A DNA stretch of 64,000 nt from contig JAUIAT010000001.1 of the NCBI GenBank assembly GCA_030425295.1, forward strand, positions 69,392 through 133,391, in the 5' to 3' direction. The DNA comes from Gammaproteobacteria bacterium. Its GTDB lineage: Bacteria; Pseudomonadota; Gammaproteobacteria; JAUIAT01. A program made the position numbers. Shown here in pieces: positions 39,001-48,000 of the stretch (its first letter is position 1; every line of letters starts with the position of its first letter).

Positions 39001-42000
39001 TTGAATTAGATCTTTTTTGAGAATGATTTTTTTCTATAGTTTAAAGGTTGTAGGTTAAAGTCATAGACAAAGCTCTTTAAGTGAGCCTTATTTTTCTCGG
39101 TAAAAGGGCTTGCACTATTGATCTAGCAAGCCCGTCACTTATAAAGGCATCGGGGCGTGGCGCAGCCTGGTAGCGCACTTGCATGGGGCGCAAGAGGTCG
39201 CTGGTTCAAATCCAGTCGTCCCGACCACCATTACTCAGCTTAAGTCATAGTAGACGTAATGCTTGTAAGTATTCGACTTCAATTATTCTCGGCTTATTGT
39301 CACAAGCATTAATCTTAGGTCATCCTGAGCGTAGCTCCTGCAAGGCGTAAAGTCGAAGGATCTGGCATCTTTTGGGTTGGTCTCTAGTGAATATAAGTTT
39401 TTTTCAATATTTCATCGTTTGTGGTTGATTGATATAAAGCCTTCAAGCATGCCCGAGTGATAAGTGATTTTAGTTTATATTCTGGGATTTTGTTTGCTAG
39501 AGATATTTGTTTGGATGAGTACCCTTCAAGCCACATTTTAAGATACTCTAGTTCGCGTTCTGTAACCCTATTATCTTTGGTAGTTACAACCTTTATTAAA
39601 GATAGTTCTTTCATCAATTCCTCCTTAAATTTTTTTAATTAATCCTGAGCGAGCTAGTCGTTTGTGTTGGCTCGAAGTCAATTTTAACCACAGAGGAGTA
39701 AAAGTCAATTATTTTAATACGATTCGGAGTAAAAAATTATTTAGTGCCAAAATAATAGTCTGGTAATTCATTCATTGGTTCAATATTGATTAATAACTTG
39801 TGCCAGTCAGAGGCCGGTATGTCCAAGTCTGCGTTATTAAGGATAGCCGGAGTCTTTGTTTTATTTTGTAATCCACTTAACAGTTCTCTGCTATTTGAGG
39901 TATATGATGCAATATCAAGGTACTCTGCAAGTTGATGGCGTGATGTGATTACAAGGAAAGTAGACTGATCATTTTGATCAACTAGCAAATATCCGTTATT
40001 GGTTTCAGTTAAGTAAAACTCTTTTATCTTGAATTGTTCAATATGGCTTTGGAAGAAATTTTTAAACTTTTGGTTAGCTAGCAAGCTTTTTATGTTAGTT
40101 TCATTGTGTTTGTTTTTTTTGTTCGAGAAGTAACTAAAGAACTTATTTTGTAGTGTAGAAATCATTTCTAAAATTTTATTTGATAAATCTGGGTCGCCTT
40201 TCAGTAAGTACCCATCAATTAATCCTGCGTTAAAAGCATTAATTGCAATATTTAAATCTCCTTCACCGGTTAGTATGATTTTTTTGCAGGGTGAGTCTTT
40301 TAGTTTTTTGCATACTTCAATGCCTGTCGTTTCGGGCATATTATAGTCTGCAATAAGTATGCTAATAGTTTCATGCCGTTTTTTGTTATTTATGTTATTT
40401 GAAGGGTGGTGTGAATTTAAAATTGCTTTGACTGCTTCATTTGGCTTGCAGGTCATTTGAGTTTTATGTTTTCTTGATAGTTTAATGTTGAAATTTTCTA
40501 GGAATTGCAGGTCATCATCTAGCATTAAAACAGTGGTGGGGTAGTAAAATTCAAGCATTACTATCTCCATTGATAATATTGGTAATTTTTTGTGTTGCAA
40601 TCAGAGAATTATTAAGCAATTTATTAATTTCTGTTAAATTTTTTAAGTGGTGTTTTGAGTTTTCCGAATCAAGTATTTCTATGGATAGCTCCAGTCCTAA
40701 CTTTATTGTTACAAGTGGGGTTTGTAGGTCGTGTTTTATCTGATCGCAATCGAATGGTTTACTCAATATCTTCTCCTAAAATTTTTCTATGCCAGATTAT
40801 TTTTGCAGCTGAGGAAATTTCAACGTTATGAATGATTGGTTCAGTTACTGTTGTCTTAGGGTTAATGCAGATTAAACTGAACTTGTTGCCTTCTTTGGTA
40901 GCTCTTATATTTCTAGCGACAATCTGTCCATTAGCCAAGTGTATAATACAGTTTTGATGTATTAATTTTTTTATGTCTTCGCCATTAAGGGGAGTGCCAG
41001 CTACTAGATCACCCTTTTCGTATATTGGTTCCATACCGTCATCATATATTTTAAGATCAATAGAGTTTGGGTGATTTTTACGAAATAGCAGTAGTTCAGT
41101 GTTAGCATAACTCTCATCATGTTGGATATGGGTTGTCTCAAGGGGTTGCTGTGTACTGGAAATTGGAGCGTAGTTTTCAAGAACCTTGGGCGCATTACCT
41201 ATTTCGTGAAGTAGCCAATCAATCGTTGCTTCAATTCCACATTGCTTTGTGGCTAAGATGACTTTTTTTGCTCCATCGCGAGGTAGGCCGCCATAGCGAG
41301 CTAATTCCCAGCCTTTGAATGTATTAACGTTTATCCCTGCTTTTTCGCAAAGCTCTTTGCGACTGAGATTGGCAAGATTTCGCACCCGCCTTAAACGGCT
41401 AGCCCTAGCTTGTGGTGTAGACTTTTCGTCCTCGATTATAACTTTTTTTATGGGCTGGCTGTCCATTTGATGCTTTTGTCCTTTTGGGTTGTTTGAGTAT
41501 TTTATATCCGAATCGGAGTAAAGGCAACTGGATTTAGTGTGTAAAATGTTTCTTGACTTCAAATTTTACTCCGCTTAGCATTGTTTGTCTGAAATTTAAG
41601 AAGAAGGACTTATATTGTTATGTTGACTGAAGCTTTTACTAGAGGGCAGTTGTTGTATAAAGCACAGGCTGAAGATTTTGATGATGACTTTGATTTTTAC
41701 TATCAATTTTGCAAAGGGAAGCAAACTTTAGAGTTGTTTGCTGGGTATGGTCGTCTTGCAAATTATTTGTCATCAAAAAATGTGAATATTGAAACAGTAG
41801 AGCTGTTATCCGGCCTTTCAAAATTTATTAATATACCTGAAAATAAAAAACACATATCAGATGTTTTAAAGTTTAGTCCGCAAAAAAAGTATGAGCGAAT
41901 TATTGCTGGTTATAACTCTTTTTGTCTGCTCTTAGGTGATGAGAATTCAAAGAATTTTTTTAAACTAATTAGTGATTGGCTGACTGATGACGGCTTAGCA

Positions 42001-45000: not shown

Positions 45001-48000
45001 AAAGCAAAGCTGCGTGGTAAGAATATTTTAACTTTTAGTGATGTTTGTAAATTTTTGAATTATCTAGAAGGCGGCGACAAAAATATTCCTATATACCTTG
45101 ATTCAGATTTAGGGGTTGATGTTCGAGGTGAAGACTTGGCTCTTGAATTAAGTAAAAAAGGTCATGTGAATATATACTTAACTACAGGTTTTTGTCGCTC
45201 TCAATTTGAGTCTATGAGTTTTCTTTCAGGAGTTATTGGTAAATCTCCACCGTTTTAATTTGAATATCAACTGTATAAATTTAGCTGCATTTGCCTCACC
45301 GCTAGGGGTTGTTGACAGCTGGTGCTGTAAAGCGAAAATATATAGAAATTTCAGCTGTAAGGTCACTTGTCAACAGGCTTTAAACTATGAACTCAATTTC
45401 TTCTTGGTCTTCCGGAGTTGTATATAGTGCATCTTCTTCGTTGTATAGCTCATGCATACCGTTTGTTTCGTTTTCACTATCATATTCAATACTATTAGTC
45501 TGTCTTGTATACAAGGAATTTCTATTTCTTGTGATTGAGTGAGCCGTAATGCCGCAGGCGCCAATGCTAGCCCCAGTAATTAAGCCAAAAAAACCACCTT
45601 TTATTGGGTTTGCGCCCAATAAATAACAGGCTGATGCCGTAAAAATTACTCCGCTAGAAGTTGTGAGTATTGTTAGTAGGATTTTGTGGCTTGTATTGTT
45701 ATTTTCTCTTCCCATCTCAAGTGCTGCATTGATCATTGCTTTGCCCTATTATCGTTTTGTGAGGCTAGTCTCTGAAGTTGTTAAATTGAAGAGGTAGTTC
45801 TAGTTTCGATTCTTTGAAAAAAGCTATAACGCTCTGAAGATCATCACGTTTTTTGCCAGTTACTCTGACTTGTTCGCCTTGAATCGAGGCTTGAACTTTC
45901 AGTTTTTGATCTTTGATCATTTTTACAATCATTTTGCCATCTTCTTTGGAAATGCCCTGGCGAAGCTTTATCTCTTGAGTGGCTGTTTTCATTTGAATGT
46001 CTGGAGTCTGGATATCGAGGTGGTTTAAGTCAATACCTCTTTTGACGAATTTGCTTTGCAAAATGTCTATCATTTGCTTCAGTTGAAAGTCGCTTTCAGT
46101 TTTCATCTTGATTGAATCTTCGCCAACTAGTTCATAGGATGCATCGCAGCCTTTAAAGTCATAACGATTTGTTACTTCGCGGTTTGCTTGGTCAACTGCG
46201 TTAGTTACTTCATGCATATCGATTTCACATACAATGTCAAAAGAAGGCATTATTGTCTCCTGAGTCTTAAATTTATACTAGGGTCTGCTGGCAATTGGTA
46301 TTGCAAAGCGAAAATATCTAAAATGCAGTAAAAATTTGTCCTTTAATTAGGAGAATAGTCTCTCTATTTAACGAATTAAAGGGTAAATTTCACAAATTAT
46401 AGAGATTTGTAGCTGTAAGACCAATTGCTAACAGATCCTATCTAAGTTTACAATAATTGGTCGTTTAATCCAACCTAAAAACCTATTGGTGCTGTCATTT
46501 TGGAGTTAAATGTAGTATAATTATCAATGTGGAAAACACCCAGTTTATGGGGGCGACAAGGTTTCGACGTTTGTGATGAAACCGGAGGAGCATGTCGAGC
46601 ACTGTGATCTTGCTCGTAAAAACAGGTTACAATTAAATATAATTGCAAACGAAAGCAATTTCTACGCTGAAGCAGACTTCGCAGAAGCTGCTTAAATAAA
46701 AAGCTAGCCGTCACCTAGATTTGCTTATGGGTTTAGAATGACGGTCATTTACATAAGATAGTTTTTCGCCCTTGGCTCGAGGGTGGATTGCGAAAATTTT
46801 AGGGCTCGCAACTTGTGCTCCCTGCTCGTTGGGGAACAGGTTGTTAAAAATAATAGACGAGCTAAGCATGTAGCGCCAAAGGCGTAGCATTAGCGGACGC
46901 GGGTTCGATTCCCGCCGCCTCCACCATATCAGGATTTATTGTGATCCTAAAACATCTAAAAGCCCTTGTTTCTGAGGGCTTTTTTAATTGTCATTCATCT
47001 CAAGAAGTTCAACAAGTGTCCCCCCAAGATCCAGTGCTGAGTGGGGGTATATTTACGGGTATCTGTATGCCCCGATAAGGAGATACCCCCAATGCCTATA
47101 GCCTCAGCAAAATAGAAGTTTCGCACTTTGTAAGAAACTCAAGTCTCAATGGGGTTTCAAAAGGGGAGGGCATTGCCTCTTCCCTTTGGTCGCTGTCCTC
47201 GCGAATTTATTTCGCGCAGGCGATGTATTAAAGGAAGGAGTGAGCACGAAGTGTGAATCTCCTGTAAGTTCCCAAAGAATTGCACCGAAACGCCATCCTT
47301 AAATCTAAAGAGAAACTTTTACATGTTTTAACATGCTCGGTAAGTTATTGTGCAAATTTAGATGCGTTTAACCTGGTTTTTTATCCCTTTATACTAATGC
47401 TAGAGTGATTGTGGTAGTATAAAAATTAGCTTTTAAGTTAAAGGGAGTTGGCTATGAAAAGGCTTTGTATTTTTAATTATTTATTATTTTTTATATTTTC
47501 TTCGTCAGTATGTTTGCCTGCTTTTGCAATTGAGAGCTTACCTCTAATTACTAAGGAAATTCAGCAAAAGATGACGCCAGACGAGGCCTTGGATCGTCTT
47601 ATTGCGGGGAACAAACGTTTTGTGGGCAGAAAAATGCAGGGAATAGATTTCCTTAATAAAGCAAAATTAACTGCAAAGGGGCAGTACCCAGCGGCGATTA
47701 TTTTAAGCTGTATTGATTCAAGGGTTCCGCCTGAAATTGTTTTCGACCAAAATGTAGGGAATATGTTTGCTACGAGGGTGGCAGCAAATGTTATAAACAA
47801 GGATGTGCTTGGCGGTTTAGAGTTTGCAACTGCTGTAGCTGGTGCAAAAGTTATTGTGGTGATGGGGCATGACTCTTGTGGTGCTGTTAGAGGGGCTTGT
47901 GAAAATGTGCGCTTGGGGCATCTCACTCAATTGGTTAATAAAATCCAGCCTGCCATCAAATTAGCGAAAAAAGAAACAGGCAAGCAAAATTGTAATGATC

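Follow-up and report, generated by a model that had tools for sequence, protein, structure and literature searches.

The 64,000-nucleotide (nt) stretch of contig JAUIAT010000001.1 (assembly GCA_030425295.1, positions 69,392 to 133,391) from a Gammaproteobacteria bacterium, referred to here as the window, carries just past a tRNA-Pro gene a group of regulatory genes (39228 to 45258) that, judged from sequence, is very probably one copy of a conserved and so far undescribed signaling cassette with a sensing function. Its plus-strand part encodes a putative S-adenosylmethionine (SAM)-dependent methyltransferase, a periplasmic binding protein similar to PotD and PotF, and a hybrid histidine kinase; on the minus strand lies the gene for a response regulator that is almost certainly a member of the LqsR family. 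The searchable literature yielded no description of this cassette. The features on which this finding depends are the following.

41620 to 42327, plus strand: class I SAM-dependent methyltransferase, cytoplasmic, 235 amino acids (aa), gene overlapping the binding-protein gene by 23 nt

42305 to 43378, plus strand: orphan periplasmic PotD/PotF-like solute-binding protein, 357 aa, with an N-terminal signal-like segment

43375 to 45258, plus strand: hybrid sensor histidine kinase, 627 aa, gene overlapping the binding-protein gene in an ATGA

44947 to 45255, plus strand: receiver-like domain at the C terminus of the kinase, residues ~525 to 627, with D531, D576, T603/T604, and K623

39737 to 40558, minus strand: LqsR-family response regulator, 273 aa, consisting of a receiver and an LqsR-type output domain

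A preliminary description of the window had set out an overlapping operon of methyltransferase, binding protein, and hybrid kinase within a larger set of regulatory genes; every gene of that set was found to be present, and the operon overlaps (23 nt and ATGA) are real. Related loci were collected from the contexts of methyltransferase and binding-protein homologues, from a genome scan and a metagenome scan, and then by a hidden Markov model census, which yielded 40 non-redundant loci encoding this binding protein. Of these, 33 have 600 nt or more of downstream sequence, and in 31 of the 33 the next gene encodes a kinase of the same family; the two loci without an adjacent kinase are contigs of 1.2 to 1.7 kb. 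Among 19 loci with long flanks, an LqsR-like regulator occurs in 12, an XRE-type gene in 9, this methyltransferase in 7, and a particular GNAT-like protein in 4. The position of the methyltransferase gene varies, as it lies before the binding-protein gene, between the binding-protein and kinase genes (locus L032), or after the kinase gene (L005). The carriers that could be named are metagenome-assembled genomes (MAGs) of Legionellales, Dependentiae, Reinekea, Bacteriovoracaceae, Oligoflexales, and Silvanigrellaceae. Because the genes overlap here and adjoin one another in many unrelated lineages and in varying gene orders, the methyltransferase, the binding protein, and the kinase are predicted to be a functional unit.

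The methyltransferase has no Pfam match and no transmembrane segment. Its motif I (LELFAGYGR, with G42 and G44) and E61 are invariant in 39 homologues, and its AlphaFold2 (AF2) model is a single compact fold with a predicted local distance difference test (pLDDT) score of 95.8. The best Foldseek matches in the PDB were 1Y8C, CcbJ, CypM, TylM1, and DesVI (E values of ~1e-18 to 1e-13, the best being 4.6e-18), followed by further near structures such as KedS8, CalS10, and glycine/sarcosine N-methyltransferase, most of them enzymes that methylate amine nitrogens; a profile search likewise found 1Y8C, at 3e-8. TylM1, DesVI, CcbJ, and CypM are the closest solved folds (template modeling scores of 0.70 to 0.77; E values of 1e-17 to 1e-13), and SAM motif I and the acidic residue are kept, but identity to them is 12 to 18% and none of them is linked to a sensor. 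The model thus points to an amine N-methyltransferase-like fold, with amines as the putative substrate class. Members of this methyltransferase family also occur alone, with neither binding protein nor kinase, in a Legionellales MAG (L002, 8001 to 8696) and a Methylococcales MAG (L011, 9953 to 10669), which indicates that the activity of the enzyme is not strictly dependent on the sensor.

The binding protein has a hydrophobic N terminus and no Pfam match of its own, SBP_bac_8 being found weakly in just 2 of 39 family members. The family profile matches PotD structures (4EQB at 4.4e-13), and with the AF2 model (pLDDT, 91.6) the top 29 Foldseek matches were all polyamine receptors. Alignment of the family to full-length Escherichia coli PotD (8Y5H_E) and to 4EQB allowed the pocket to be mapped: PotD residues W34, Y37, S83, D168, E171, W229, and D257 are kept as family residues W40, Y43, S89, D173, E176, W238, and D268 and are invariant or nearly so, and four others are replaced (T35 by W, E36 by G, Y85 by T, and W255 by S). 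The family also has an invariant Cys pair. In PotD, Glu36, Glu171, and Asp257 hold the three spermidine nitrogens (PMC4096761); since two of these three carboxylates are kept and an additional Trp is present, the ligand is likely to be a cationic amine, although not necessarily spermidine. The fold and the best sequence and structure matches are thus shared with PotD, PotF, SpuD, and SpuE, and the pocket is similar in part, with most but not all of the acidic and aromatic ligand residues kept. In contrast to these components of ATP-binding cassette (ABC) importers, the binding protein has no permease or ATPase partner and no Pfam solute-binding-protein match; neither an ABC permease gene nor an ABC ATPase gene was found in the locus of the window, where the kinase gene comes next. 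Two variations on the binding protein were seen elsewhere, namely, a 505-aa fusion of a PotD-like binding protein with a SnoaL-like domain (L018, 8001 to 9518; P0065) and tandem binding-protein genes in L018, L003, L030, and L031.

The kinase consists of a first transmembrane segment, a periplasmic domain of ~170 aa, a second transmembrane segment, an H-box with H307 (HDIRSPL), a catalytic domain (HATPase_c at 1.2e-15 in Pfam; N421 and the G1 and G2 boxes), and a divergent receiver. Four Cys residues of the periplasmic domain (Cys136, -149, -176, and -179) are invariant; no match to this domain was found in the PDB, and dCache_1 was found weakly in 4 of 18 members. Alignment with the kinases of related cassettes extends over the entire protein and includes the sensor domain, which covaries with the family. 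For the C-terminal receiver, Pfam gave no match, and a profile built from a four-sequence alignment (A5), in which D531, D576, and K623 are invariant, found mainly receiver domains in the PDB at E values of 0.01 to 0.1.

The regulator starts at ATG 40558 after a GGAG, in an open reading frame (ORF) that itself reaches TTG 40600. Its receiver domain (Response_reg, 36.5 bits in Pfam) has the complete set of residues, D14/D15, D71, T97, and K120 in the 273-aa numbering, which are invariant or nearly so in the regulator alignment (A3), and E180, Y182, G188, and W252 are conserved in the C-terminal domain of the same alignment. A word-indexed homologue search with the whole regulator matched the protein itself only; when the C-terminal 148 residues were searched exhaustively, 188 representative relatives were obtained, mostly of 310 to 340 aa, in which the match is likewise C terminal. 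The window regulator as a single sequence matched PDB entry 6SY9 ("Response regulator") at 3.5e-32, residues 112 to 314 of 6SY9 align with it at 3e-29, and a profile of 45 relatives matched full-length 6SY9 at 7e-109. We take 6SY9 to be the LqsR of Legionella pneumophila, which would fit its numbering; the literature searched did not confirm this identity. D71 aligns with the acceptor Asp at chain position 128 of 6SY9, which would presumably be Asp108 of LqsR if the construct carries a 20-residue tag. The genomic contexts of the nearest relatives of 6SY9, a kinase-regulator pair and a hemF-regulator-cytochrome c arrangement, give the LqsR identity indirect support only.

LqsR is phosphorylated at Asp108, dimerizes upon phosphorylation, and dephosphorylates its kinases (PMC5289986). 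The receiver protein of the preliminary description was recovered, but its "uncharacterized" C-terminal domain is, by homology, the LqsR output domain, for which a structure has been solved; the mode of action of LqsR-family regulators is still open (PMC10653808). The window regulator is short, without an insertion of ~30 aa and the C-terminal tail, and its identity is ~27% both to 6SY9 and to the other cassette regulators. Since the tree of LqsR-like regulators is star-like and the window protein does not group with other cassette regulators, no cassette-specific regulator subfamily can be claimed.

In loci that have both, the regulator gene is usually immediately preceded by the XRE gene, often with coupling of the two. 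The cassette XRE genes encode an S24-like domain in most loci, and in the usual family (A7) none of six aligned members has Ser at the position of LexA Ser119, as mapped by eye. The HTH gene of the window is the following.

40759 to 41466, minus strand: XRE-type helix-turn-helix (HTH) protein with a degenerate S24-like C-terminal domain, 235 aa from the ATG, in an ORF that reaches TTG 41562

This gene ends in TAA at 40759, and the minus-strand operon is tight. Both Pfam matches of the HTH protein are below threshold (HTH_31, E value of 0.006; Peptidase_S24, E value of 0.009), and no real match was found in the PDB. Residues 142 to 147 read DDGMEP in place of LexA GMSM, which replaces Ser119 by Gly, and VARNI(R) stands in place of TVKRL, which replaces Lys156 by Arg; in this by-eye mapping to LexA, the HTH protein lacks the catalytic Ser-Lys pair of LexA and CI (S24). 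A MAFFT alignment with LexA was set aside as too divergent to be reliable. The exchange of Ser for Gly noted in the preliminary description stands, by eye, and the LexA-like class that it proposed for the repressor depends on the two sub-threshold matches. In a Legionellales MAG (L014, 5025 to 5825), a neighbor of the methyltransferase gene contains two tandem copies of the unusual HTH module that occurs once in the repressor of the window (…GIE[AC]T[IL]DWLL…).

Loci without this methyltransferase fill the enzyme slot with GNAT acetyltransferases, other class I methyltransferases, an isochorismatase-like hydrolase, or a C-N hydrolase. In L017 (11128 to 14782), genes for an XRE protein and an LqsR-like regulator are followed, on the same strand and tightly packed, by those for a Lys/Orn N-monooxygenase (Pfam, 1e-105) and an EamA transporter, a gene set that suggests a secreted N-hydroxylated amine; L029 (12001 to 15659) has the same gene order and sizes, and its match to L017 is one of order and size alone. 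L019 (1 to 5269) contains an operon for an Orn/diaminopimelate/Arg decarboxylase, a PP-binding carrier protein, an acyl-CoA dehydrogenase, and a MatE efflux protein, divergent from an XRE-regulator-GNAT-binding protein-kinase operon, and looks like a small pathway for an amine-derived metabolite. These exporters and amine-biosynthesis genes fit a signal that is made and then sensed.

The position of the enzyme slot inside a signaling operon would also suit an enzyme whose target is one of the pathway proteins (the kinase, the regulator, or the repressor), in a CheR-like adaptation by methylation, with the GNATs of other loci acetylating the same target. The closest folds include that of CypM, which methylates peptide N termini, and GNATs that acetylate protein amines could substitute in other loci. 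We consider this very unlikely, as the hydrolases, the N-monooxygenase, and the exporters found elsewhere point to small-molecule chemistry, the methyltransferase also occurs without sensor genes, and its model is one compact 235-aa fold with no CheR-like substrate-binding domain.

The preliminary description stated that no cognate arrangement was known, but the Phc/PhcX system (PMC10653808) and the NspS-MbaA system (PMC8079147) are precedents, as are Lqs and LuxP-LuxQ. In Ralstonia, the gene for PhcX, an LqsR-family protein, adjoins phcBSRQ, and PhcB is a methyltransferase that makes the autoinducer (PMC10653808). The window resembles this system in that a SAM methyltransferase gene is in an operon with a sensor kinase gene and the gene for an LqsR-family regulator is adjacent (PMC10653808). 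In contrast, PhcB makes fatty acid methyl esters and the window enzyme resembles amine N-methyltransferases, PhcB and PhcS being compared here by description only; genes similar to phcR (receiver plus kinase) or phcQ are lacking; and the PotD-like binding protein, integral here, is absent from Phc. NspS of Vibrio cholerae is likewise a transporter-less PotD-like periplasmic protein encoded beside a membrane signaling protein, MbaA, which it regulates via the MbaA periplasmic domain, with a polyamine as the ligand (PMC8079147, PMC5646818). The output there is GGDEF-EAL (cyclic di-GMP), in contrast to a hybrid histidine kinase acting on an LqsR-type regulator here, and the NspS-MbaA operon has no modifying enzyme.

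The Lqs system itself (LqsA synthase, LqsS and LqsT kinases, and LqsR) shares with the window the regulator family, with an acceptor Asp equivalent to Asp108, and an enzyme gene located with the genes of a two-component circuit, the genome of the window being Legionellales-like. It differs in its enzyme and its kinases: in place of an LqsA/CqsA-type pyridoxal phosphate enzyme and a multi-pass LqsS/CqsS-type kinase, the window has a methyltransferase, a periplasmic binding protein, and a hybrid kinase with two transmembrane segments, and its regulator, with 273 aa, is the shorter one, has 27% identity to 6SY9, and is encoded in an operon with an XRE-type gene. Kinases of the LqsS/CqsS type reportedly have six helices. 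The regulators of L003, L005, L017 to L019, and other cassettes are likewise not accompanied by LqsA/CqsA and LqsS/CqsS genes. In LuxP-LuxQ, which responds to autoinducer 2, and in TorT-TorS, a periplasmic binding protein is the ligand-binding subunit of the hybrid kinase encoded beside it, as proposed here, but LuxP and TorT are of the ribose-binding-type class, a separate histidine phosphotransfer step is involved, and the regulators are not of the LqsR type. By analogy, then, the arrangement is Phc-like with an NspS/LuxP-type co-receptor added, yet it is a member of none of these systems.

The reading that we favor, tentatively and at close to an even chance, is an amine-sensing phosphorelay that is probably autocrine, or quorum-sensing-like. 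Gene content, folds, family assignments, and conserved synteny are what the sequence comparisons establish, the core being a binding protein, a kinase, an LqsR-like regulator, and an XRE-type gene, along with a nitrogen-acting enzyme; the steps below are inferred from them. The orphan PotD/PotF-type protein would capture a small cationic amine in the periplasm, either polyamine-like or a tailored derivative. By analogy with NspS-MbaA and LuxP-LuxQ, it would serve as the ligand-binding subunit of the kinase, docking in its loaded form on the Cys-rich periplasmic domain and switching the protein between kinase and phosphatase activity. The phosphoryl group may then pass from His307 to the LqsR-family regulator, directly or via the receiver of the kinase, and in this genome possibly via a 71-aa protein similar to the dimerization and histidine phosphotransfer (DHp) domain of kinases, which is described below. 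The regulator has no DNA-binding domain and is co-operonic with the XRE-type repressor, with which it probably works on the divergent promoter region. The co-operonic SAM methyltransferase would most likely make or tailor the sensed amine and thereby close an autocrine loop, which is proposed because exporters and biosynthetic genes are present in some loci, the sensor is co-operonic (by predicted cotranscription), and Phc provides a precedent. As a claim in its own right, that the methyltransferase makes the sensed signal is plausible but a little more doubtful.

Several observations weigh against this reading. The methyltransferase is present in just 7 of the 19 well-flanked loci and is also found alone, and the binding-protein pocket has the same residues regardless of the accompanying enzyme, an invariance that fits one common ligand, possibly of host or prey, better than enzyme-specific signals. 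The window's own locus contains no exporter gene and no amine-biosynthesis gene. PotF-like proteins that had been predicted to bind polyamines proved to bind γ-aminobutyric acid or 5-aminovalerate, and sbp and kinase genes that adjoin each other do not necessarily function together (PMC11113362). The HTH protein of the window is not homologous to the XRE/S24 family A7 usual in the cassette (hhalign probability, 7%), and the C-terminal receiver of the kinase is weakly supported.

Since the methyltransferase is no fixed part of the cassette and the pocket is invariant, the enzyme could act on a foreign amine instead of making a signal. The binding protein and the kinase would then detect, for instance, a polyamine of a host or prey as a cue for being "inside a cell," and the methyltransferase, GNAT, or hydrolase would neutralize, catabolize, or convert that amine, with no self-signal involved. 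The pocket residues are invariant over all 39 family members irrespective of the enzyme; the varied chemistry of the enzymes (methylation, acetylation, and hydrolysis) recalls detoxification or catabolism; most carriers belong to intracellular or predatory lineages (Legionellales, Dependentiae, Bacteriovoracaceae, Oligoflexales, and Silvanigrellaceae); and NspS-MbaA likewise senses environmental polyamines (PMC8079147). However, the enzyme is located in the cytoplasm, with no importer gene in the cassette, the enzyme gene lies in the sensor operon (by predicted cotranscription) instead of being a separate regulated target, and exporters (EamA and MatE) and biosynthetic genes are found in or beside some cassettes. 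We therefore regard the sensing and modification of a foreign amine as rather unlikely and place the autocrine phosphorelay slightly ahead of it. The quorum-sensing-like circuit of the preliminary description has gained from the LqsR-family regulator, from the reality of the unit, and from the exporters and biosynthesis genes of related loci; the significance that it gave to the methyltransferase coupling has been reduced, as the enzyme is replaced elsewhere by a GNAT, another methyltransferase, or a hydrolase, with the pocket unchanged.

A bolder reading, which we hold unlikely when its four parts are taken jointly, is that the locus represents an undescribed class of amine-based autoinducer systems. 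In this class, interchangeable N-methyltransferases, N-acetyltransferases, and N-hydroxylases would derive a lineage-specific signal from a common polyamine; a PotD-like co-receptor on a Cys-rich hybrid kinase would read that signal; the LqsR-type output would consist in binding and controlling the co-encoded XRE/S24-like repressor; and the 71-aa protein, a bare DHp domain, would be the smallest histidine phosphotransferase known, passing phosphoryl groups from the kinase receiver to the regulator.

The structure of the LqsR output domain has been solved, and its activity is not known; the cassette, whose input side is entirely different from LqsA and LqsS, gives a lead, as the conserved partner, an XRE/S24-like repressor, may be the missing output. 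Sensing of the polyamine type by orphan PotD-like proteins would be extended from cyclic di-GMP enzymes (NspS-MbaA) to phosphorelays. The cassette is found mainly in amoeba-associated and predatory bacteria, in which an amine cue derived from host, prey, or self could control life cycle switches, and the swappable enzyme slot provides a natural experiment on the coevolution of signal chemistry and receptor.

Between the genes for the HTH protein and the regulator lies the small ORF invoked above.

40551 to 40766, minus strand: H-box-only (DHp-like) ORF, 71 aa, overlapping each neighbor by 8 nt and predicted to be translationally coupled to both

The preliminary description had reported a 71-aa H-box-only protein overlapping both neighbors, and the ORF is indeed there, with its H-box (HDLQTPL) at residues 12 to 18. 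It matches HisKA over both DHp helices (E value of 0.0018) and RstB (E value of 0.0011), both below the curated cutoffs; it has no similarity to the DHp domain of the cassette kinase; and in the PDB the EnvZ DHp domain at an E value of 0.6 was the sole relevant match, those to human immunodeficiency virus protease being spurious. Its start is TTG 40766, the sole possible start, 6 nt after AGGAG. The ORF is recorded from the contig of an independent public assembly (Logan) only and not from the NCBI contig, and no small H-box ORF was found in ~45 related loci. The Shine-Dalgarno sequence and the double 8-nt overlap argue that the ORF is translated; its uniqueness to this lineage argues that it is no core part of the cassette.

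That this ORF is instead a nonfunctional remnant or a chance ORF and no phosphotransfer protein is a serious possibility, although we consider it somewhat improbable. Its absence from all ~45 related loci, its record in the Logan contig alone, the TTG as the only possible start, and HisKA, RstB, and EnvZ matches of the strength given above would all suit a remnant. Against this, AGGAG is at ideal spacing, the ORF overlaps both neighbors and fills the whole gap with no decayed flanks, the H-box is canonical and both helices of the HisKA profile are matched, and the size is that of the EnvZ DHp chain in the PDB (1JOY, 67 aa). An isolated EnvZ DHp fragment folds on its own. Compared with Spo0B, ChpT, and the EnvZ DHp domain, the predicted protein is similarly a DHp-sized helical hairpin with an H-box and without a catalytic domain, and it is flanked by a hybrid kinase and a terminal regulator. 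Spo0B and ChpT have an extra domain; here, the homology is below threshold and the ORF is found in this organism alone.

The remaining features of the locus comprise a further regulatory ORF and two intergenic regions.

39384 to 39617, minus strand: stand-alone LuxR/GerE-type HTH ORF, 77 aa, lineage specific

39712 to 39733, no strand assigned: candidate operator copy (…CGATTCGGAGTAAA), a 22-nt direct repeat between the regulator and LuxR-like genes

41467 to 41619, no strand assigned: divergent control region between the HTH and methyltransferase genes, containing an inverted repeat

The 77-aa LuxR-HTH protein of the preliminary description is present as an ORF, and its GerE match (E value of 7.5e-5, 22.7 bits) lies just under the 23.5-bit cutoff; no relative was found in the ~45 related loci. 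The sequence ATCCTGAGCG occurs twice in the 64 kb, where 0.05 occurrences are expected, as direct copies 320 nt apart (39322 to 39331 and 39642 to 39651) that bracket this ORF, and the first copy lies inside a partly palindromic stretch (ATCCTGAGCG…GTCGAAGGAT), which we presume to resemble the small repeated elements found in Legionellales-like genomes. It is conceivable that the LuxR-like gene was acquired as a mini-cassette.

The inverted repeat of the divergent region (41506 to 41522 and 41565 to 41581) is 17 nt long and 82% complementary, with a 9-nt core (CGGAGTAAA and TTTACTCCG), and the 22-nt direct repeat formed by 39712 to 39733 and 41501 to 41522 is 82% identical. Three TCGGAGTAAA-like sites occur in the window (39724 to 39733, 41513 to 41522, and 41565 to 41574), all in the two regulatory intergenic regions of the locus; in the divergent region, a pair of them spaced by 42 nt makes up an inverted repeat, and the third is upstream of the LuxR-like gene. 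Their number is not above chance for the whole window, and it is their placement alone that is suggestive; the sites are candidate operators for the HTH protein or the LuxR-like protein. Promoter and terminator scans remained at chance level, with promoter-like hexamers on both strands of 41467 to 41619.

The ORF map of the window has four minus-strand ORFs after the tRNA-Pro gene, followed by three plus-strand ORFs.

39151 to 39227, plus strand: tRNA-Pro gene (anticodon GGG; ARAGORN; Rfam tRNA, 59.8 bits), the left edge of the low-GC block

The Logan assembly contains an identical contig of 7.2 kb, on which the gene caller found the same genes, including the 71-aa ORF. The low GC content reported for the DNA directly after the tRNA-Pro gene was borne out, at 0.348 for 39228 to 45258 versus a window mean of 0.386 (standard deviation of 0.016 for 6-kb windows); this is the lowest-GC 6 kb of the 64-kb window, and 0.9% of 6-kb windows are equally low. 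The island proposed on that basis fared less well: no integrase or other mobility gene is present among the ORFs of the locus, the tRNA-Pro 3' end, for which a repeat search near 45.3 kb had been suggested, has no second copy in the window when up to three mismatches are allowed, and a direct-repeat search of 39.1 to 47.1 kb gave no flanking repeats that could serve as island borders. Without these three signs, the label "island" rests on composition and position only. An Rfam scan of 38.5 to 47.5 kb found the tRNA and a transfer-messenger RNA (tmRNA) only, with no riboswitch and no small RNA.

A classical integrative genomic island that entered at the tRNA-Pro gene would account for a block that starts directly past that gene and has the lowest GC content in the window, and the patchy occurrence of the cassette across phyla points to horizontal transfer. 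Nevertheless, with no mobility gene, neither a repeated tRNA 3' end nor flanking direct repeats, and a GC drop of just 4 points, entry as such an island appears improbable.

The tmRNA gene (46549 to 46926; Rfam, 193 bits; predicted tag, ANESNFYAEADFAEAA) lies ~1.3 kb past the right end of the low-GC block, so that the cassette sits between two classical integration hot spots (tRNA and tmRNA), yet without an integrase. A 46-nt imperfect direct repeat (45302 to 45347 and 46278 to 46323; 76% identical; CTAGGG…GCGAAAATAT.TA.AA) flanks a 118-aa membrane-protein ORF and yajQ, one copy being in the gap between the kinase gene and that ORF and the other in the gap between yajQ and the tmRNA gene, and may be a repeated intergenic element. 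On the other side of the locus, just upstream of the tRNA-Pro gene, a 127-aa ORF (38601 to 38984), which by eye we take to be MerR-like, overlaps the end of the ORF at 38318 to 38632 by 32 nt; the latter and the ORF at 35937 to 38318 are, in our unaided reading, presumably ihfA and pheT, respectively.

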